DNA of 63,845 nt from Chloroflexia bacterium. GTDB lineage: Bacteria > Chloroflexota > Chloroflexia > QHBQ01. Position numbers and translations under genes: made by a program. Each line of letters starts with the position of its first letter. Positions within the stretch are counted from its first letter, which is position 1. The stretch lies in the NCBI GenBank assembly GCA_038229595.1, contig JBBROH010000003.1, forward strand, positions 1-63,845, read 5' to 3'. Shown here piece after piece: positions 864 to 10,390 of this stretch. The notes beneath the pieces were generated by a model. It made no database searches, was not told the origin of the DNA, and was given only the letters and a program-made list of their open reading frames with translations.

Positions 864-3779
864 TTAGGGGGCGGGCGTGCCAATGCGGCGGGCCAGTTCG
901 TCGAGGGTGCGCTTGAGTTCGGCCTGCGCCTGACCGTAAGTGGCGAAGTCGTTAGCGCGCAAAGCAGCCTGGCCGCGCTCGTACTGCTGCTGGGCGAGGC
1001 TAACTAGCTGCGGTGCGCTGAGGGTGGCGAGGTCGGTGCCACCCGCGATGGTTGGTTGGGGGGCGGCGGTCGGCTGCGGGCCGGGGGTGCCGTTCGCGGT
1101 TGGCGTGCCGGTACCAACACCAGTGCCGGGCTGCTCAATCGCGCTACCCTGCCCACTGAGTAGCTTGTTGATCGCCTCGTCAAAGGTGCTAGCGATAGTC
1201 ACCCGGTTGGTGCTAGCGACGATCACATACTTCAGTTCGGGCTGCGGGTTCTGCTCGGCGGTAACGTAGAGCGGCTGCACGTAGAGGATCGACTGGCCGA
1301 TGGGCAGGACGAGCAGGTTGCCCAACTCTACATTGGAGCCTCGTTGCCCCAGGAGGGTGCGTAGTTGAGAGATGCTGGGGTCCTGGTTGGCGCGGGCGAC
1401 CACCTGTTGGGGGCCGCTCACCTGGTTGCCAGCCGGGAAGCGGATCACTACGATCTTGCCATAGTCCGCTCCATCGCTCTTGGCCGCCATCCAGGCCGTC
1501 ATGTTCGGCTTGCCCGCGGGGGTGAAGGGCAGCAGCAGCAGGAAGGACTCGCTCTCGTCACCACGTAGCTTCATGATGTTGTAGTAAGGCTCCATGCCGC
1601 CTGCATTAGCGTTGCGGTTGCGGTTGGGCGTGCCGTCGGTGGCAACAGTCCAGGGGTCTTGCCGCCGCAAGAAGACCTGTGGCTCGGTCATGTGGTATAG
1701 TTCGAGCGTCTGCGCCTGCACATTAAAGAGCAACTCTGGGTAGCGCACGTGGGCCACCAGGTTCGCTGGCATCGCCGAGCGCGGCTTGAACAGGTCGGGG
1801 AATATCTTGCTGTAGGTCTTGAGGATCGGCTCGTTCTCATCGAAGGCGTAGAAGGCCATCTTGCCGCTGTAGGCATCGATCACCACCTTCACCGAGTTGC
1901 GGATGTAGTTGAAGCCGCCAATGGTGCCAGTGTACACCGTTGCGTTGGGGTAGCGGTCGCTGATCGTGTAAGCATCGCGTATCCAGTACAGCTTGCCGTC
2001 GGCGATCACCAGGTAGGGGTCGTCGTCGTAGAGCAGGAAGGGAGCGACCAGGTTGGTCATCTGCTGCACATCGCGGTTGTAGAGGATGCGGCTATCGTCC
2101 TTGAGCGCATCACTGAGCAGGATATTACCGTCGCCAAAGTGGTAGGAGTAGAGCAGCTTCTTCCAGTAGGAGTCAAGGGCCACCCCACCGCTGCCTTCAT
2201 AGCCGCCGCCGAGGGTGTTGGTTGCTGTAGTCGTGCTGCTGAGGCTGCCAGTACTGCTGATCACCCCTTCGTTGCCCTGGAACACGGTGGCCGTCGTCTT
2301 GACGAATACATAGTCGTCGGTTTGCAGGCCGTAGTAGATTTCGGGGCGGCTGAGGTTGAGGTTGGGGTAGCTGCTGACGGGGGGGATGTCGCGCACGAAC
2401 AGGCGCGGCGACCCTTCGCCTACCGCCTCGTTGACTGGGCTGAGGGCTACACCCAGGCCGTGGGTGTATTGCAGGTGGCGGTTCGGCCAGTTGAGGCCGT
2501 TCACCTTGTTCTGATCTAGTTCGCGGGCGGCTAGCATCACCTGGCGGTAGTCGCTGCCGAGGGTGTAGCGATCAATCGTCACTTCGCTGAAGTTGAAGTA
2601 GGTGCTGATCGCCTGCAACTGCTGGTAAGACTGCTCAAGCTGGCGGTAATCCCAGAGGCGCACGTTCTTGACTGTCTGCGGGCTGGCAGCGAGGTCGGCG
2701 CGGGTCAGTTCTGCGGTTGGCCCTGGTCGTTCTTCGATGATGTCGAGGTTGAAGGCAGAGCGGGTTGCCTTGATGTTGTTGTCAGCGTACTTGCTCTCTT
2801 TATCGAATATGTTGGCGTTGACCTGGAACTGCTGTACAAAGGTGGGGTAGACCCCGCCGACCAGGATCGCCACCAGCAGCCACGCGCCCAGGGAGTAGAG
2901 CGGCAAGCGATAGTTGCGCGAACGGATGGTTAGCAGGAGGGTGAGGGCAACCAGGATCACGACTACCAGCAGTATCCAACTGGCGGTGATGCGGGCGTTC
3001 TCATCCGTATAGCCAACCCCGGCGAACGCGGTGCTGCCTTCGCGCTGGTTGAACAGCAGCTTGTAGCGGTCAAGGAAGTAGCCGAAGGCGAAGGTGAGCA
3101 ACCAGAGCGCACCGAGGATGGTCAGGTGGGGGCGGGCTGCTGCTGGCAGGTCGATCTGCGGCAAGCCAAGCTGGTTGAGCATCGTCTCTGGCGACCCATC
3201 CTCGGCCAGGCGACGGGCGGCAGGGCGGGTTACGGTCGGCATTGTCAGGCGGCTGCCAACCGCATAGACGGCAATCACGGCTACGCCAGTAAACAGGATC
3301 AGGCTGCTAATCCAGCCGCGCAGGTCGTCCAAGAAGGGCAGGGTGAAGACGTAGAAGCCAACATCCTGCTGAAATATGCGGTCGGGGCTGCCACCAAAGG
3401 GGGTGGCGTTGAGGAAGCGTAGCACCGTCACCCACTCGCCGCCAGCAGCGAGACCGAAGAAGATCGCCAGCACCAGCGTGGCCGCCCAGATTAGCTGGCG
3501 GATCGACCCTGCACTGAGGGTCGCCTGCTGGCCCTCGAATATCTGCCCCGGCGTGCTGTTGCGCCGGGCCACCTGGAGGTTGACGGCCAGGAAGATCGCC
3601 GCCAGTATGGTACCCGCGATGCCCACCAGCCATTGGGTGGTGAAGCGGGTAATGTAGACCGAACTAAGCGACTGGCTATCGAACCACAACCAGTCTGCTG
3701 CGATATTAAAGATCAGGGGCAGGCCAAACAGCAGCACTGCCACAACGACAGCAATCGGCACCCATATCCTGGGTCGCAT
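864..3779 (-). CDS. UPF0182 family membrane protein
   Basis: 971 aa; DWLWF near the N-terminus, several TM segments, DVGFYVFTLP, NVRLWD, YTHG, YIRNSVKVVIDAYSG, GNLLVLP, PELKYVIV motifs. Confidence 0.92.
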   Translation of the reverse strand: MRPRIWVPIAVVVAVLLFGLPLIFNIAADWLWFDSQSLSSVYITRFTTQWLVGIAGTILAAIFLAVNLQVARRNSTPGQIFEGQQATLSAGSIRQLIWAATLVLAIFFGLAAGGEWVTVLRFLNATPFGGSPDRIFQQDVGFYVFTLPFLDDLRGWISSLILFTGVAVIAVYAVGSRLTMPTVTRPAARRLAEDGSPETMLNQLGLPQIDLPAAARPHLTILGALWLLTFAFGYFLDRYKLLFNQREGSTAFAGVGYTDENARITASWILLVVVILVALTLLLTIRSRNYRLPLYSLGAWLLVAILVGGVYPTFVQQFQVNANIFDKESKYADNNIKATRSAFNLDIIEERPGPTAELTRADLAASPQTVKNVRLWDYRQLEQSYQQLQAISTYFNFSEVTIDRYTLGSDYRQVMLAARELDQNKVNGLNWPNRHLQYTHGLGVALSPVNEAVGEGSPRLFVRDIPPVSSYPNLNLSRPEIYYGLQTDDYVFVKTTATVFQGNEGVISSTGSLSSTTTATNTLGGGYEGSGGVALDSYWKKLLYSYHFGDGNILLSDALKDDSRILYNRDVQQMTNLVAPFLLYDDDPYLVIADGKLYWIRDAYTISDRYPNATVYTGTIGGFNYIRNSVKVVIDAYSGKMAFYAFDENEPILKTYSKIFPDLFKPRSAMPANLVAHVRYPELLFNVQAQTLELYHMTEPQVFLRRQDPWTVATDGTPNRNRNANAGGMEPYYNIMKLRGDESESFLLLLPFTPAGKPNMTAWMAAKSDGADYGKIVVIRFPAGNQVSGPQQVVARANQDPSISQLRTLLGQRGSNVELGNLLVLPIGQSILYVQPLYVTAEQNPQPELKYVIVASTNRVTIASTFDEAINKLLSGQGSAIEQPGTGVGTGTPTANGTPGPQPTAAPQPTIAGGTDLATLSAPQLVSLAQQQYERGQAALRANDFATYGQAQAELKRTLDELARRIGTPAP

Positions 3780-4015
3780 AGAAGTTCCCTCGTTTCAACA
3801 TATCGTGTAATCGCCACTTTTGTCTCCTACCATTGTACAGCAAGCGTCAAGCCCGACACAAGCCTGAGCCAGGGCTTGGCGGCTCCTCACGGCGGTCGCT
3901 ATCAGCGTCCCTGTGGCTGCATCCCTATGCCAATTATCAACCTGAGCCGCCTGCCTTCATCTCTGACCTAGATATGTTATAATCGCAGCGAGACGAGTGG
4001 TGGAGGATAGCAGAT

Positions 4016-5227
4016 GTGACAAAAACAAGCGCGATGATCGGGCTGGTCTGTACAGCCTGTGGCAGCCAGTATGCTGCCGACCAGATGCACGGCTCCTGCC
4101 CCAACTGCGGCAAGGTGCTGTTCTGCCAGTATGACCTGGATGGCCTACGGGAGCAGTTGACGGTGGCTGAGCTTGCCCGCCGCCCACGCGGTGTCTGGCG
4201 TTGGTACGAGTTGCTACCCCTGGCTGACGAGCGCGATATCGTCACCCTCGGCGAAGGGGACACCCCCCTGCTTGCTTGCGACCGCCTTAGCCGCCAATTG
4301 GGGGTGGGCCAGTTGCGGGTCAAGGACGAGGGCTGCAATCCAACTGGCAGTTCGCGGGCGCGCGGGGTGGCGGTAGCCGTCTCTGTAGCCCGTCAGTATG
4401 GCATAGCCGCTGTCTCGATCCCCTCACTGGGCAACAGTGCCGACGCAGTGGCCGCCTACGCTGCTCGCGCTGGGCTGGAGAGCTACGTCTTTGTCCCTGA
4501 TGTAGCGAGCATCGCCCACCTCGCCACTATGGTTGCCGCTGGTGCCTACACCTATAGGATCAAAGCAAAGGAGTTGGAGAACAACCAGCAGGTGCGCGCC
4601 CACAGCAAGCGGTTTGGCTGGTTCGACCTCAGCCACCTGCGCGAACCCTACCGCATTGAGGGCGAAAAGACGCTGGGCTACGAACTGGCCGAGGCTTACA
4701 ACTGGCAACTACCCGACGCGCTGATCTACCCACTGACCAGCGTGATCGGCCTGGCCGCGATCTGGAAGGGCTGGGCCGAGTTGGAGGCGTTGGGCTGGAT
4801 TAGTAGCTATCGCCCCCGCATCTTCGGCGTACAGGCCATTGGTTGCTGCCCTCTCAGCCGGGCCTTTGAGAGCGGTAGCGAGAGTAGCGAACCCTGGGCA
4901 GAGCGCGAAATGGAGACGGTCTACAACTGCCTGCACGCTACCAACCCAGTGGGTAGCTATCTTGCCCTGCGCCTGGTACGCGAGAGTGGCGGCCAGATCA
5001 TCACTGTTGGTGACGAGGCAATTGCCACCGCCCAACTCGATCTCGCCCGCTGCGAAGGGATTTTCGCTTCGCCAAAGGGGGCAATGGCTATAGCCGGATT
5101 GAAGCGGCTGGTCAGCGACGGGCTGATCGACGGTGAAGCCAGCGTCGTCCTGGTCAACCCGTCTAGCGGCCTCAAGGAGCCACAAGTGATCAGCCTCAGC
5201 GATCTCCCCCCCACCCTCGCCCAGTAG
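4016..5227 (+). CDS. Threonine synthase-like (PLP fold type II) protein with degenerate active site
   Basis: N-terminal CxxC...CxxC, TLGEGDTPL, EGEKTLGYELAE motifs; canonical NPTGSFKARG reads NPTGSSRARG. Confidence 0.8.
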   Translation: MTKTSAMIGLVCTACGSQYAADQMHGSCPNCGKVLFCQYDLDGLREQLTVAELARRPRGVWRWYELLPLADERDIVTLGEGDTPLLACDRLSRQLGVGQLRVKDEGCNPTGSSRARGVAVAVSVARQYGIAAVSIPSLGNSADAVAAYAARAGLESYVFVPDVASIAHLATMVAAGAYTYRIKAKELENNQQVRAHSKRFGWFDLSHLREPYRIEGEKTLGYELAEAYNWQLPDALIYPLTSVIGLAAIWKGWAELEALGWISSYRPRIFGVQAIGCCPLSRAFESGSESSEPWAEREMETVYNCLHATNPVGSYLALRLVRESGGQIITVGDEAIATAQLDLARCEGIFASPKGAMAIAGLKRLVSDGLIDGEASVVLVNPSSGLKEPQVISLSDLPPTLAQ

Positions 5228-5231
5228 CCAC

Positions 5232-5720
5232 TCAAGTGCTGTGGTGGATGATATGGATGTGCAAGGTAGCCGGGTCAGCCACGATCAGCCCCTCATAGCC
5301 GCCCACACACGTCCCCTTGTAGTGGTTAAGCACTGATATGGCAACGGCTGGCATACTGGCATAGGGCTGGCAGGCACCGATGAAGGTTCCCTCGCTACCA
5401 TCAGCGGGGCGCAACTGCTCTACATACCGCTGAAAGTCAGAGGCAGGCAGGGCAAAGTCTGCCTCAAAGTACCAGTCGGTGAATTGCTGATAGCTAAGTT
5501 TGATTGCCCCCGCACTGGCTGGTACTGGCTGCGGCGAGTAGTCGTTCAACCACTTGAGTTGCTGAGCCGGAGTTAGCTGCCCCTCATCGAGGCTGGTGCC
5601 AGCCAGCAGGTTGAAGCCCAGCCAGGTCATCAGCCCCAGCACCAGCAGGCAGCCGCCTGCCAGCAGCCCAACAATGAGCAAGAGAGGACGACGGCTGCTG
5701 CGACTACTGCTCTTGAGCAT
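5232..5720 (-). CDS. Hypothetical membrane-anchored protein
   Basis: Basic N-terminus plus hydrophobic helix, then soluble domain; ATG at 5720 chosen over 5774. Confidence 0.6.
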   Translation of the reverse strand: MLKSSSRSSRRPLLLIVGLLAGGCLLVLGLMTWLGFNLLAGTSLDEGQLTPAQQLKWLNDYSPQPVPASAGAIKLSYQQFTDWYFEADFALPASDFQRYVEQLRPADGSEGTFIGACQPYASMPAVAISVLNHYKGTCVGGYEGLIVADPATLHIHIIHHST

Positions 5721-5822
5721 GGCGATCTCCCAGCGTGTGTAGTTTTGCTTGTTCGCCATACAATACGTCGGCATAGGCCATTTTGTTGCAACGTCGTGGG
5801 CTTGAGCAGGAACTTCTTCTCC

Positions 5823-8438
5823 CTACTGCTCCGCCAAAGCGTGGGCCACCGCCTGCTCTAGCGTCCAGGCGGCACCCTCCGCCAGGGCTGCTGCCGCCTC
5901 ATCGCTGCTCAGGCTAGCCAGGGCTGCTGCCAGTTGGCGGGAGTGGCTCTCGCGCTCTGCTGGCGAAAAGGGGGTGCCGAGGTTATCGTGCAGCGCACTG
6001 ATCGCGGCCAACAGAGACAGGGCCAAGCGTGCCTGCCCAAGATGAAGAAAGAGGTCAGCATAATCGTCCAGCCCGGTGAGGATGCCGAGTGTGTCGCCGA
6101 GGCTACGTTGCAGAGCCAGGCTCTCGCGGATCAGGCGGCGGGCGGTAAGCACGTTCCCCTGTCGTAGGGCGATCAGCCCAATATAGCCCGACACCGTCGC
6201 GATCCCGCCCTCGTTGCCCAACTCGCGCTCCAGGGTCAGGCTCTCCTGCAACAGGGGGCTGGCGGTGGCGTAGTCGGCCAACTGGTAGGCGACGATACCA
6301 AGATTGCCGAGGGCGATGGCCGTACCTGCCTTGTTGCCCACCTGCCGCTCGATTGTCAGGCTCTCGCTGAACAGGCTCTGGGCGGTGGCCGCGTCCCCCT
6401 CGTCAAGGGCGATGCTGGCTAGATTGTTGAGCGTGGCAGAGATGCCCACCTGGTCGCCCTGCTCGCGTTGCAGGCTGAGGGCCAACTGGTAGTATACTCG
6501 CGCCCACTCGTAGTTGCTCTGGGCGAAGGCAAGTCCACCCGACCCGTTCAAGGCTTTGGCCCGCAGAGAGGGGTCAGCGGTCGTCTTCTGGGCCAGGGCT
6601 GCTTCCAGCCAGGCACGCCCTTCGCTGAAGTGACCGCGCGTAAACCAGAACCGCCAGAGAGCGACCGCCAGCCGCAGGGCCAGGGTCGTGTCTGTCCCTG
6701 GTTGCAGGGTGTAGGTGAGGGCGGCCCTCATGTTGTCATGCTCCTCCTCCAGCCGAGTCAGCCAGGCACGCTGCTCCGCACCAAGCAGTCCCAGTTCAGC
6801 GGTCTCGGCCAGGCGCAGGTAATATTCAGCATGGCGGTTGGCAGTCGCCGCCTGCTCACCCGCCTCGGCCAGCTTTTCTGCTGCATACTCGCGGATCGTC
6901 TGCAACATGGCAAAGCGCACCTCGCCCTCTGCCGTCTCGCCCCGCTGCAACATACTCTGGTCAGCCAGGGCTTCCAATCCCTCGCCGCCAGCGGCCACTG
7001 ACTGGCAAACCTGCTCGGCAGCCTCGACCATGCAGCCGTCCGCGAAGACGCTGAAGCGGGCAAAGAGCAGCCGTTCGCTCTCGGCCAGCAGGTCGTAGCT
7101 CCACTCAATCGCCCCGCGCAAGCTGCGTTGGCGTTCGGGCCGGTCGTGCATCCCTTGCGCGGTGAAGGACAGGCTGCTGAGGCGGATCAGCATCATCTGC
7201 GGCGGGTACATCTTGCTACGCGCAGCAGCCAGTTCGATAGCCAGCGGTAGGCCGTCCAGCTTGCGGCAGATCGCCACCACCGCCTCCGCATTCTGCGTCG
7301 TCCACTGGACGCCAGCCTTGACCGCCTGCGCCCGCTCTACAAACAGGGCGACAGCGGGGTAGTAGAGCAACTCGTCTGGCGGCGGCAGTTGTGGGCCGGG
7401 GGGTAGGCCCAGGGGCAGCACCGCGAATTCGTGTTCGGCGTAGAGGTGCAAGGAAGTACGGCTGCTGACCAGTATCTTGAGTTGGGGGACAGCACTAAGC
7501 AGATCGGTGAGCAGTGCCGCGCCCTCTACTACCTGCTCGAAGTTGTCCAGCACCAACAGCATCTGCTTGTCGCGCAGGCGCGTCTTGAGGCTGGCGGCCA
7601 GGCTCTCGCCTGCTTCCACTATCTCCAACGTTGCTGCGATCTCCGCCGCGATCAACCCCGGTTCGGTGAGGCAGTCGAGCGGGACGAAGAACACCCCGCC
7701 GTTAAACTCGGTCAGCATCTCGGCGGCCACCTGGGTGCTGAGGCGCGTCTTGCCGCTACCGCCCGGCCCGGTAAGGGTAAGCAGCCGCACCCCAGGCTGG
7801 CGCAGGCGGTCACAGACCGCTGTTACTTCACGCTTGCGGCCTACCAGCGAGGTGGAGTGGGCGGGCAGGTTGGTGGGGTGCGCGTCTAGCGTCCGCAGCG
7901 GCGGAAACTCGCCCGGTAGGTTAGGGACAAGTAGCTGGAAGATTTGCTCCGGCTGGCTCACATCCAGCAGCCGCCGTTCGCCCATGTCGTAGAGTTGACC
8001 GCTATCTGGCAGCCTCCCCCGCACCAGGTCGGCGGCAGTAGCCGAAAGCAGTATCTGGCCGCCATGCCCGGCGTAGAGGAAGCGTTCGACCCGGTTGAGG
8101 ATCGGGGCCGGGTAGTCGCCGCTGGTCGGGAAGGCAGTGGCGGTGTAGAGGGCTAGCCGCACCCGCAGCGGGCCGGTTTCGCCCCACTCCTCAGTGTGCA
8201 GGCCCCACTGGATCGCCAGGGCCGAAGCAAGGGCGGCGTTCGGGTCGCTGAAGGCCGCGCAGAAAGCATCGCCAATCGTCTTGAAGACCGCGCCCAGTGG
8301 CTCAACCGCCTGTCGGATGATCGCGTCGTGGCGGGCAAGGGCAGCGCGCATCGCCAGCGGGTGCCGCTCCCACAGGCGGGTGCTACCCTCGATGTCGGTA
8401 AAGAGGAAGGTTACGACTCCACCTGGTAGTTCTGCCAC
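5823..8438 (-). CDS. Class III adenylate/guanylate cyclase - NB-ARC (STAND ATPase) - TPR protein
   Basis: TFLFTDIEGST and KTIGDAF cyclase motifs; Walker A GPGGSGKT, Walker B LLVLDNFE, GLPLAIELAA; C-terminal TPRs; GTG start after a G-rich RBS. Confidence 0.88.
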   Translation of the reverse strand: MAELPGGVVTFLFTDIEGSTRLWERHPLAMRAALARHDAIIRQAVEPLGAVFKTIGDAFCAAFSDPNAALASALAIQWGLHTEEWGETGPLRVRLALYTATAFPTSGDYPAPILNRVERFLYAGHGGQILLSATAADLVRGRLPDSGQLYDMGERRLLDVSQPEQIFQLLVPNLPGEFPPLRTLDAHPTNLPAHSTSLVGRKREVTAVCDRLRQPGVRLLTLTGPGGSGKTRLSTQVAAEMLTEFNGGVFFVPLDCLTEPGLIAAEIAATLEIVEAGESLAASLKTRLRDKQMLLVLDNFEQVVEGAALLTDLLSAVPQLKILVSSRTSLHLYAEHEFAVLPLGLPPGPQLPPPDELLYYPAVALFVERAQAVKAGVQWTTQNAEAVVAICRKLDGLPLAIELAAARSKMYPPQMMLIRLSSLSFTAQGMHDRPERQRSLRGAIEWSYDLLAESERLLFARFSVFADGCMVEAAEQVCQSVAAGGEGLEALADQSMLQRGETAEGEVRFAMLQTIREYAAEKLAEAGEQAATANRHAEYYLRLAETAELGLLGAEQRAWLTRLEEEHDNMRAALTYTLQPGTDTTLALRLAVALWRFWFTRGHFSEGRAWLEAALAQKTTADPSLRAKALNGSGGLAFAQSNYEWARVYYQLALSLQREQGDQVGISATLNNLASIALDEGDAATAQSLFSESLTIERQVGNKAGTAIALGNLGIVAYQLADYATASPLLQESLTLERELGNEGGIATVSGYIGLIALRQGNVLTARRLIRESLALQRSLGDTLGILTGLDDYADLFLHLGQARLALSLLAAISALHDNLGTPFSPAERESHSRQLAAALASLSSDEAAAALAEGAAWTLEQAVAHALAEQ

Positions 8439-8506
8439 CGTAGCAACCCCCTGCCAAATCTCTGTTCTAGTATAGCACAAACTGCGGATTGTGCTTTGCC
8501 TTTGGC

Positions 8507-10390
8507 TCAGTAGCGCACCCGCCAGTCCCCTTCGCGGCGGGTGAGGTGCGCCTCGTCCAGAGACTCCAGGATTGCCAGGGCGTACTTGCGGCTGGCTCCG
8601 TAGAGGTCACGCAGGCTGGCGATGCTGACCTTTTCGCCTGCGTCGATCAGGGCTAGCACGCGGCTGCTAGCGGCCTCATACGCCGCCCGCTCGAAGAACA
8701 CCCCCCCTGCCTTCACCACTTCGCCGCGCTCCAGCAGGGCGGTCAACACATCACCCTCCCCCTCAAGGCCCAGTTCGGCGGGGGCAGGTGGGGCATAGGG
8801 ACTGGCCCGCAGGGCGGTCAGGTAGCGATCAGCCTGCTGCTGCTGGGCATGGCTGAGGGTGATCGCAAAGTCGGGCAGGTGGTAGCTGCCACCGACTCGC
8901 CCTGCCTGCTCAAGGGCGGAGGGGACAATGATCTTGGCTTCGGCGGCAGCAGCCAGTACCGCAGCAAACGGCTTGCTGTCCAGCCCCAGCTTGCCGCGCA
9001 ACTCCTCCTTGCCGATGCCAGCCCGCAACGGTTGTCGCTGGTGGAACAGGGCGACCACTTCGCGCAGGCGGTGGCTGAGGTCAGCCCACGCGCCGCTGCT
9101 GATCAGGTAGCCAGCCAGTCTGCGGGCGCGGCCCTCGGCTAGCAGTTGGGCCGCCGCCTGCTCTGCTGCCGCTGCGCCCAGTTGCACCAGGCCACCCGCC
9201 CGCTTCAGTTCGAGCGGTTGGCTGAGGACGGTCAGCAGGAGGTCGGCGGGGTCGCCCTTCGCCAACGTGCTGAGGCTGGTCAGCACGCGGGGCTGGAAGC
9301 GTTTGTGGCGGCGGGGCTGCGGATCAACGATTACCCCCCCCGCCACAGTGCGGCTGGGCGAGGGCTGCCGCAGGATAAAGCGGTCGCCCCTTGCGACAAC
9401 GACGGGATTAGCCAGCCGCAATTGCGCCCAACCCTGCGCCCCCGCTGCCAAGCTCTCCTGATCGAGGATAGTCAGGCGCACAGCAGTCTCGCTGGTGCCG
9501 ACGAACAAATCCAATTCGTTATTCTGGGCGATCAACGGCGCGTCTGCCAGCGTGCTGATGAAGACATCCAGGCGGTCACTAGTCTCCAGGCGACCAGGGA
9601 GGGTCAGCACCTGCCCCCGGCGCAACTCGCCTACCTCTAGCCCGATCAGGTTGACCGCCACGCGATTGCCGGGCGGGGCCACCTCCACCTTCTGCTTGTG
9701 CATCTGGAGGCCGCGGATACGGCTCCGCAGTGGTGCGCCATGTGGCCCCGGCCCCACCTCCACCTCTTGCCCGACCGCCAGTACGCCATCCAGCAGGGTG
9801 CCAGTTACCACAGTGCCAAAGCCAGCGATGCTGAAGGCGCGGTCAATGGGCAGGCGAGCGCGGCCCTGATCGCTCACACGGGGCGCGCCCGCCAGCACTG
9901 CTGCCAATGCGATTTGCAATGCGCCCAACCCGGCCCCCGTGCGTGCGCTAACTGGCACGATGGGGGCAGCGGCCAGCCGCGTCCCGGCTAGTAGGCTACG
10001 CACGTCCGCACTGACCAGGGCCAGCCAATCCTCGTCCACCAGATCGCACTTGGTCAAGGCGACAACGCCACGTTCGATTTGCAGCAGGTTGAGGATCGCC
10101 AGGTGTTCGCGGGTTTGGGGCATTGGCCCTTCGTCGGCGGCCACCACCAGGATCGCCGCGTCGATACCGCCCACCCCAGCCAGCATATTCTTGATGAAGC
10201 GTTCGTGGCCTGGTACATCAATAATGCTGATCTCGTTGCCGTCGGCCAGGCGCAACCAGGCATAGCCGAGGTCAATCGTCATCTCCCGCTCCTGCTCCTC
10301 GCGCAGGCGGTCGGGGTTGATGCCGGTCAGGGCCAGCACGAGGGTAGACTTGCCGTGATCCACATGACCAGCAGTGCCGACGACGTACAT
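8507..10390 (-). CDS. selB: Selenocysteine-specific translation elongation factor
   Basis: GTAGHVDHGKS, EREMTIDLG, IDVPGHERFIKNMLAG, long C-terminal winged-helix region ending SRKYALAILE..D. Confidence 0.93.
   Translation of the reverse strand: MYVVGTAGHVDHGKSTLVLALTGINPDRLREEQEREMTIDLGYAWLRLADGNEISIIDVPGHERFIKNMLAGVGGIDAAILVVAADEGPMPQTREHLAILNLLQIERGVVALTKCDLVDEDWLALVSADVRSLLAGTRLAAAPIVPVSARTGAGLGALQIALAAVLAGAPRVSDQGRARLPIDRAFSIAGFGTVVTGTLLDGVLAVGQEVEVGPGPHGAPLRSRIRGLQMHKQKVEVAPPGNRVAVNLIGLEVGELRRGQVLTLPGRLETSDRLDVFISTLADAPLIAQNNELDLFVGTSETAVRLTILDQESLAAGAQGWAQLRLANPVVVARGDRFILRQPSPSRTVAGGVIVDPQPRRHKRFQPRVLTSLSTLAKGDPADLLLTVLSQPLELKRAGGLVQLGAAAAEQAAAQLLAEGRARRLAGYLISSGAWADLSHRLREVVALFHQRQPLRAGIGKEELRGKLGLDSKPFAAVLAAAAEAKIIVPSALEQAGRVGGSYHLPDFAITLSHAQQQQADRYLTALRASPYAPPAPAELGLEGEGDVLTALLERGEVVKAGGVFFERAAYEAASSRVLALIDAGEKVSIASLRDLYGASRKYALAILESLDEAHLTRREGDWRVRY

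Follow-up and report, generated by a model that had tools for sequence, protein, structure and literature searches.

A conserved threonine-synthase-fold protein without its cofactor lysine in a Chloroflexota family, probably a non-catalytic binding or regulatory protein

The gene, its product and the former cofactor site

We analysed a 63,845-nucleotide stretch of a Chloroflexia bacterium (GTDB lineage Bacteria; Chloroflexota; Chloroflexia; QHBQ01; assembly GCA_038229595.1, contig JBBROH010000003.1, positions 1 to 63,845 of the forward strand; hereafter the window), in which a forward-strand gene at 4016..5227 encodes a protein with the predicted fold of threonine synthase (ThrC) and without the lysine to which the cofactor pyridoxal 5'-phosphate (PLP) is attached in that enzyme. 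The open reading frame (ORF) starts with GTG and runs without an internal stop for 403 amino acids (aa). Searched against Pfam, its product matched only PF00291 (PALP), at 195.7 bits and over the whole catalytic region. Among the more specific models, NF006050 (PRK08197, named 'threonine synthase' in NCBIfam) matched at 415.2 bits, above its cut-off of 303; the thrC model TIGR00260 scored 153.8 bits, below its cut-off of 167.1, and the cysteate synthase model TIGR03844 gave 53.6 bits against a cut-off of 324.9. The NF006050 score does not discriminate for threonine synthase, since the same model also accepts other proteins that lack the lysine (P0212, P0133, P0214 and P0152). AlphaFold2 predicted a ThrC fold with confidence (predicted local distance difference test, pLDDT, 94.7; predicted template-modelling score, pTM, 0.93), and the best Foldseek matches of this model were the ThrC structures 6cgq, 6nmx, 2zsj and 1v7c, with template-modelling (TM) scores of 0.86-0.88 on the target; the match to 6cgq (E = 8e-31, TM 0.88) supports assigning the predicted structure to the ThrC fold. 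An N-terminal zinc ribbon of the form CxxC-x12-CxxC is encoded at 4049..4108 on the forward strand, as are the motifs described below. Its cysteines (C12, C15, C28 and C31) are all invariant in an alignment of 17 sequences; in a larger alignment of 120 sequences this still holds for C12, C15 and C28, with C31 conserved at 90% or more. A first-pass annotation, made from the sequence alone, had described a full-length gene without frameshift that keeps its zinc ribbon and fold, and the ORF, the cysteine conservation and the structural matches bear this out.

To locate the cofactor site, the protein was aligned residue by residue to the solved ThrCs 2zsj, 2d1f and 6cgq, and its columns were compared across the top 120 matches, which comprise 113 Lys-bearing relatives and seven members of the clade to which it belongs (hereafter the Arg clade). 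Arg114 (codon CGG, 4355-4357) occupies the Schiff-base lysine position of NPTGSFK(D/A)RG, and the former PLP-attachment motif at 4337..4366 reads NPTGSSRARG where relatives have NPTGSFKARG, with Phe113 replaced by Ser as well as Lys114 by Arg. The 'asparagine loop' at 4424..4438—S(T/A)GN(T/A) in the solved ThrCs—reads SLGNS for SAGNA; all members of the Arg clade share A138L, and position 140 varies among them (N, H or D). At 4730..4750 the former PLP-phosphate loop, which is the glycine-rich PVGNAGN in the solved ThrCs and PTGGGTG in the PRK08197 subfamily, has become PLTSVIG, a new conserved hydrophobic sequence. The first-pass annotation had named these three altered motifs, and the structure-guided alignment confirms each of them. 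It also adds losses that had gone unremarked: beyond Phe113→Ser, Lys217 has become Glu (4664..4666; EGEKT for EGKKT; Lys in 113/113 Lys-bearing relatives and Glu in 7/7 clade members), Thr382, which we take from ThrC structures to be the probable contact to the PLP ring nitrogen, has become Pro (NPSSGLK for NTGSGLK at 5156..5176; Pro in 7/7 clade members), and the loop formed by G305, V308 and P309 is altered as well.

The pattern of loss is far from chance, because none of the 113 Lys-bearing relatives departs from Lys114, Phe113, Gly242, Gly243 or Lys217 (each 100% conserved). These relatives have 146 columns conserved at 90% or more, of which the clade keeps 95 and has changed 29, each in at least six of its seven members. 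In 15 of the 29, a new residue has been fixed (R114, L138, R181, E186, E188, E217, L240, S242, V243, I244, A248, I249, G252, W253 and P382); the other 14, among them 113, 207 and 305-309, vary inside the clade. Thirty residues, including C37, C88, D143, H168, N190, Q191, Y228, Y303 and E388, are invariant in the clade and rare in relatives. Arg213, a substrate-phosphate residue, and the EPYR motif are retained. We looked for a clade-specific replacement lysine in the Arg-clade orthologues, a check that the first-pass annotation had proposed, and found none. Judged by its sequence, the window protein cannot be a PLP-dependent threonine synthase. As a side observation, Cys37 (4124-4126) and Cys88 (4277-4279), both invariant in the Arg clade, each occur in 1% of relatives; a disulfide between them, or an additional metal site, is conceivable.

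Conservation, setting and origin of the Arg form

The arginine, the lost glycine loop, K217E and T382P recur in 8/8 distinct orthologues, drawn from five genomes of one Chloroflexota family (two genera) and from three metagenome contigs. A search of 5.8 billion proteins returned six close relatives at 57-96% identity, then a gap, with the next matches at 46-48%. In the alignment, all six—one of them named 'Candidatus Chloroheliales bacterium'—carry the arginine, the lost glycine loop, EGEKT and NP(S/T/A)xG, and every remoter match has the canonical motifs. The clade forms a single cluster among 1.84 billion representatives at 50% identity. At the level of genomes, only 5/401 sampled from the class have the Arg form: the window genome, that of a congener, and three from the family's second genus (hereafter g2). 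Whether orthologues share the Lys-to-Arg change was the central check suggested by the first-pass annotation, and the answer is uniform: over this whole range of identity, every orthologue of the clade has arginine and none has kept the lysine.

Selection on the gene was assessed from its codons. The Arg114 codon differs between orthologues (CGG, AGG or CGC), and it is therefore arginine itself that is maintained at this position. For pairs of Arg-form genes, the ratio of nonsynonymous to synonymous substitution rates (dN/dS) was 0.10-0.16 at dS of 0.22-0.66 (Nei-Gojobori, unsaturated pairs), compared with 0.071 for the genuine thrC and 0.056 for a UPF0182 gene in the same genome pair and with a median of 0.125 for Lys-bearing relatives from the same order. 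The Arg-form gene is thus under purifying selection as strong as that on its Lys-bearing relatives; between genera, its product is 59-60% identical, versus 48% for that of the adjacent UPF0182 gene. Catalytic and cofactor residues have been lost and the gene is under purifying selection across species, as would be expected of a conserved pseudoenzyme. The first-pass annotation had proposed just this, as opposed to random decay, and the shared losses and the dN/dS values support it.

Upstream of the gene, an extended -10 element, TGtTATAAT (consensus TGnTATAAT; 3975..3983, forward strand), is kept in 5/5 aligned upstream regions, and a Shine-Dalgarno-like sequence, GGTGGAGG (3999..4006, forward strand), lies 9 nucleotides (nt) 5' of the GTG and keeps its GGTGG core in orthologues; the rest of the intergenic region is unalignable across the five. 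The promoter call rests on the conserved extended -10 element only, because neither a -35/-10 pair nor a -35 box emerged from a scan with the sigma-70 consensus; no terminator was found 3' of the gene. The conserved promoter and Shine-Dalgarno sequence argue for expression of the predicted product. An Rfam scan of 3300-6000 gave no riboswitch or leader, its sole match being a chance microRNA hit at E = 0.2.

The only neighbour kept across both genera is a divergently transcribed gene for a UPF0182 (PF03699) membrane protein, at 864..3779 on the reverse strand. This head-to-head pairing holds in every contig that is long enough, namely those of both genera and two metagenome contigs out of three; the remaining one is too short. 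The outer flanks differ between genera: on one side a Dps/ferritin gene against a putative mannosyltransferase gene, and on the other a small membrane protein against a major facilitator superfamily (MFS) transporter. In the sister families the genes flanking UPF0182 are different ones, and UPF0182 and the Lys-bearing copy do not share a contig. UPF0182 proteins have been connected with the regulation of FtsH in a preprint (10.1101/2025.11.14.688347). We treat the pairing as the only lead to a partner or pathway, and not as evidence of function. Downstream, on the opposite strand, the window encodes an 885-aa adenylate/guanylate cyclase-STAND ATPase-TPR protein just beyond the gene (5823-8480) and then the selenocysteine elongation factor SelB (8507-10390), with Pfam assignments taken in both cases from the congener's locus.

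The genuine ThrC of the window genome (NPTGSFKDRG, PAGNLGN) is encoded on another contig, directly after the homoserine-kinase gene in a thrB-thrC operon; the window protein is not linked to thrB and is 34-35% identical to this enzyme. The three metagenome-assembled genomes of g2 (MAGs; G002, G003 and G004, 83-84% complete) yielded no ThrC-subfamily gene other than the Arg form, and searches with the genuine ThrC protein, TIGR00260, the homoserine-kinase protein and TIGR00191 recovered neither thrB nor a canonical thrC from them. Homoserine dehydrogenase (hom) was found in 5/5 genomes, and the TIGR00260 search detected ThrC in 14/14 control genomes. The chance of missing a locus that is present in all three MAGs is about 0.17 cubed, or about 0.005, assuming independence. 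Threonine auxotrophy of g2, an unknown route or a gap left systematically by binning could account for this pattern. The Arg-form protein is probably not working through ThrC, since g2 keeps the dead copy and thrB and thrC were not found there.

Phylogenetically, the Arg clade is monophyletic (Shimodaira-Hasegawa-like approximate likelihood ratio test, SH-aLRT, 99-100), has a stem of 0.69-0.86 substitutions per site and is placed inside an unresolved radiation of zinc-ribbon ThrC-like proteins. Two sister families of the order carry a Lys-bearing copy of the subfamily, and the Arg-form family is without such a copy; most sister-family genomes have a second ThrC-family gene as well, which we take for the counterpart of the thrB-linked thrC. 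A topology joining the Arg clade to the Lys-bearing clade of the sister families was not rejected (approximately unbiased test, p-AU 0.34), and it is therefore plausible that a redundant paralogue was inherited vertically and then lost its catalysis. FastTree grouped the Arg clade with the Lys-less P0152, P0204, P0212 and P0214; we read this as long-branch attraction, since IQ-TREE under a site-heterogeneous model did not recover the group. No conserved operon was found around the Lys-bearing relatives from the same order, one lying near a lysA-like decarboxylase gene and another near GNAT genes. The former case (L052, a same-order genome) has the Lys-bearing relative at 6869-8032 followed by an ornithine/diaminopimelate decarboxylase gene (lysA-like) at 8079-9389, an arrangement in keeping with a role of the catalytic form in aspartate-family biosynthesis.

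Proposed function and its rivals

We favour, with somewhat better than even confidence, the reading that the window protein is a conserved pseudoenzyme that would serve as a PLP-free, non-catalytic binding or regulatory protein with a ThrC fold, a UPF0182-linked role included. An ancestral genome with two ThrC-family genes would have let the PRK08197-type copy lose catalysis. The emptied cofactor pocket may then have been filled by newly fixed hydrophobic residues (L138, L240, V243, I244, A248, I249 and W253), the old substrate contacts partly released, and the cleft re-lined by newly fixed polar residues (R114, D143, H168, E186, E188, E217 and Y303). On this account the protein would now act by binding a non-PLP small molecule or a protein partner, in a regulatory or adaptor role, and this role would be independent of ThrB and ThrC, since g2 keeps the gene and neither was found in its MAGs. 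Several observations weigh against the proposal. Several former contacts to the substrate (positions 113, 140, 207 and 305-309) differ between clade members, and a single conserved small-molecule site is therefore not assured; the polar residues that have become fixed might just as well belong to a new catalytic site; the adjacency to UPF0182 could be inherited synteny in a small clade; and the seeming lack of thrBC in g2 is drawn from three MAGs of 83-84% completeness. The possibility of a new catalytic site leads to an account that we think unlikely, in which the remodelled cleft, with C37 and C88 in addition to the seven polar residues just listed, carries out a reaction that needs no PLP, or binds PLP or another cofactor without a covalent link, and in g2 might even stand in for the missing ThrC. 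Such a neo-enzyme would make sense of the thirty clade-specific invariant residues, many of which have polar or charged side chains and fall in what were once active-site motifs, of the selection of arginine specifically, and not just any residue, at 114, of the retention of Arg213 and EPYR, and of the failure to find canonical thrB and thrC in g2. It is harder to reconcile with the fact that phosphate loop, ring-nitrogen contact and stacking phenylalanine have all disappeared, and with variation at the substrate-side positions 207 and 305-309; moreover, we know of no fold-type II enzyme that works without PLP. As a g2 threonine synthase, it would also go without its substrate, O-phosphohomoserine, which would not be made because thrB was not found there either.

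Other rivals keep the protein non-catalytic and differ on its partner. It might be a subunit or regulator of the genuine ThrC, acting as a heterodimer partner or decoy in the way that antizyme inhibitor acts on ornithine decarboxylase (ODC) or TSB-like on tryptophan synthase alpha. ThrCs are dimers, the predicted fold is intact and the window genome does have a genuine ThrC. A dead fold-type II paralogue in plants is, besides, documented as an allosteric partner (PMC12727527). Even so, we judge this improbable: the protein is only 34-35% identical to the real ThrC and is unlinked to thrB-thrC, and the purifying selection within g2 (dN/dS 0.10-0.16), whose three MAGs yielded neither thrB nor thrC, argues against an obligate role of this kind. 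The genuine ThrC, which the first-pass annotation had put forward as a possible partner, has thus become a less likely one. A role as a cytoplasmic partner or adaptor of UPF0182 in FtsH-linked membrane-protein quality control would be a sub-case of the favoured binding-protein reading, and taken by itself we give it little probability. The head-to-head pairing, which persists in both genera and in two of three metagenome contigs with both outer flanks different, would be expected under it, as would the location of same-order Lys-bearing relatives away from UPF0182 and the FtsH link made by the preprint; against this, intergenic conservation is limited to promoter-proximal parts, synteny in so small a clade may be inherited, and other Lys-less lineages have unrelated neighbours. 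Finally, the loss of catalytic residues is what a decaying pseudogene, or a sequencing or assembly error, would produce, but the data refute this explanation and leave it next to no probability: the same substitutions stand in eight distinct orthologues from independent assemblies, stops and frameshifts are absent, dN/dS is about 0.1-0.16, the promoter and Shine-Dalgarno sequence are conserved, and the predicted fold is confident.

Other lysine-less relatives and known systems

The Arg clade is one of several lineages in which a ThrC-like protein has lost the lysine. In an alignment of 164 sequences, made up of the seven clade members, a sample of Lys-bearing matches and the full-length representatives at 50% identity, 29 are without it, 22 of them outside the Arg clade, and the tree requires at least four, and about ten, independent changes. 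Ten representatives of 487-499 aa have Ile, Leu or Asn in place of Lys, and a C-terminal PadR winged helix-turn-helix (wHTH) was present in 6/6 of those tested against Pfam (P0163, P0197, P0207, P0220, P0240 and P0262; 487-498 aa); the other four of the ten representatives are P0210, P0236, P0245 and P0255. One cluster of this group comes from Thorarchaeota and is labelled 'threonine synthase', as are all the named Lys-less clusters. The PadR-fused P0207 and P0220 score below the cut-offs of NF006050 and NF004170, and P0207 scores above that of TIGR00260. NF006050, an 'equivalog threonine synthase' model, is propagating wrong names. Full-text literature searches for ThrC pseudoenzymes and PadR-ThrC found no description of Lys-less ThrC proteins; that PLP-enzyme homologues can lose the lysine has been noted in general by a paper on a B6 database (PMC2748086).

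We found no common neighbour among the independent Lys-less lineages, which instead adjoin frr, a GAF histidine kinase gene, TatA or acetyltransferase genes, or an energy-coupling factor (ECF) transporter S-component gene. The last of these stands head-to-head with a gene of the Thorarchaeota cluster (L066, 6001-7488). In L065, the gene at 6001-7038 encodes a ThrC-like protein of 345 aa that has Ala in place of Lys (NPSADSAARG); it lies 8 nt 5' of a gene for a GAF-GAF-GAF-HisKA-HATPase sensor kinase (7046-9103), and the pair looks like one regulatory unit. In L051, a metagenome contig of Gram-negative character with an rpsB-tsf-pyrH-frr string, a ThrC-like gene with Lys replaced by Arg (NPAASVRARG, EGEKT, VNPAS; P0212/P0278; 8001-9182) starts 3 nt after frr; it shows no robust kinship to the Arg clade.

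The PadR fusions show that regulation is a task for which a dead ThrC fold can be enlisted, and the kinase-adjacent copy of L065 is a further precedent. A broader and more speculative reading, which we regard as possible and put forward tentatively, is that Lys-less ThrC-fold proteins form a widespread, unrecognised signalling or regulatory class, all mis-annotated as threonine synthase. That class would include archaeal PadR fusions, histidine-kinase-coupled copies and stand-alone forms. The Arg clade would be its most 'de-cofactored' member, with the new site formed by R114, D143, H168, E186, E188, E217 and Y303 sensing a non-PLP metabolite and reporting to a partner such as the UPF0182/FtsH system. 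Whatever the role, there are practical consequences for annotation: metabolic reconstructions would credit these Chloroflexota with a threonine synthase that is possibly absent, because the protein passes the NF006050 cut-off and the named orthologue PZS03363.1 carries that label, and a simple check for the lysine and the glycine loop would correct many database entries. The Arg clade is also a clean case, from bacteria, of a PLP-enzyme fold that has outlasted the complete loss of its cofactor site, and it adds to the evidence for repeated co-option of the ThrC fold to roles other than catalysis.

Among known systems, the zinc-ribbon ThrCs of NF006050/PRK08197 are the immediate point of reference. 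The window protein is 42-48% identical to their Lys-bearing members, shares their fold and zinc ribbon, and keeps EPYRxEG, K103, K218 and 95/146 near-invariant columns; it differs in having no Schiff-base lysine, stacking phenylalanine, glycine-rich phosphate loop or ring-nitrogen threonine, in the K217E replacement and in its lack of linkage to thrB. With the archaeal PadR-fused Lys-less proteins (Thorarchaeota RLI49164.1, about 490 aa, near PRK05638) it has in common the ThrC fold, the zinc ribbon, the replaced lysine and often EGEKT, although on the tree the two losses of lysine are independent. The fusions carry a DNA-binding domain, whereas the window protein is without the PadR wHTH, and most of them keep the G-x-G-G loop and the threonine of (V/I)TGxGLK, both of which the window protein has lost. 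Because these elements are mostly kept, the PadR fusions could still hold PLP non-covalently; because they are lost, PLP sensing is unlikely for the Arg clade.

Reuse of PLP-enzyme folds as decoys or sensors is familiar from antizyme inhibitor, a paralogue of ODC, and from the MocR, GabR and PdxR regulators. The former has a type III fold and the latter a type I fold, and MocR proteins keep both the lysine and PLP and carry a helix-turn-helix. Of the characterised analogues, plant TSB-like is the closest in kind: a dead paralogue of tryptophan synthase's beta subunit that allosterically activates TSA (PMC12727527). It is likewise a dead fold-type II PLP paralogue, maintained by selection and working by binding; its partner, TSA, is known and two residue changes disable it, whereas in the window protein the whole cofactor site has been erased.

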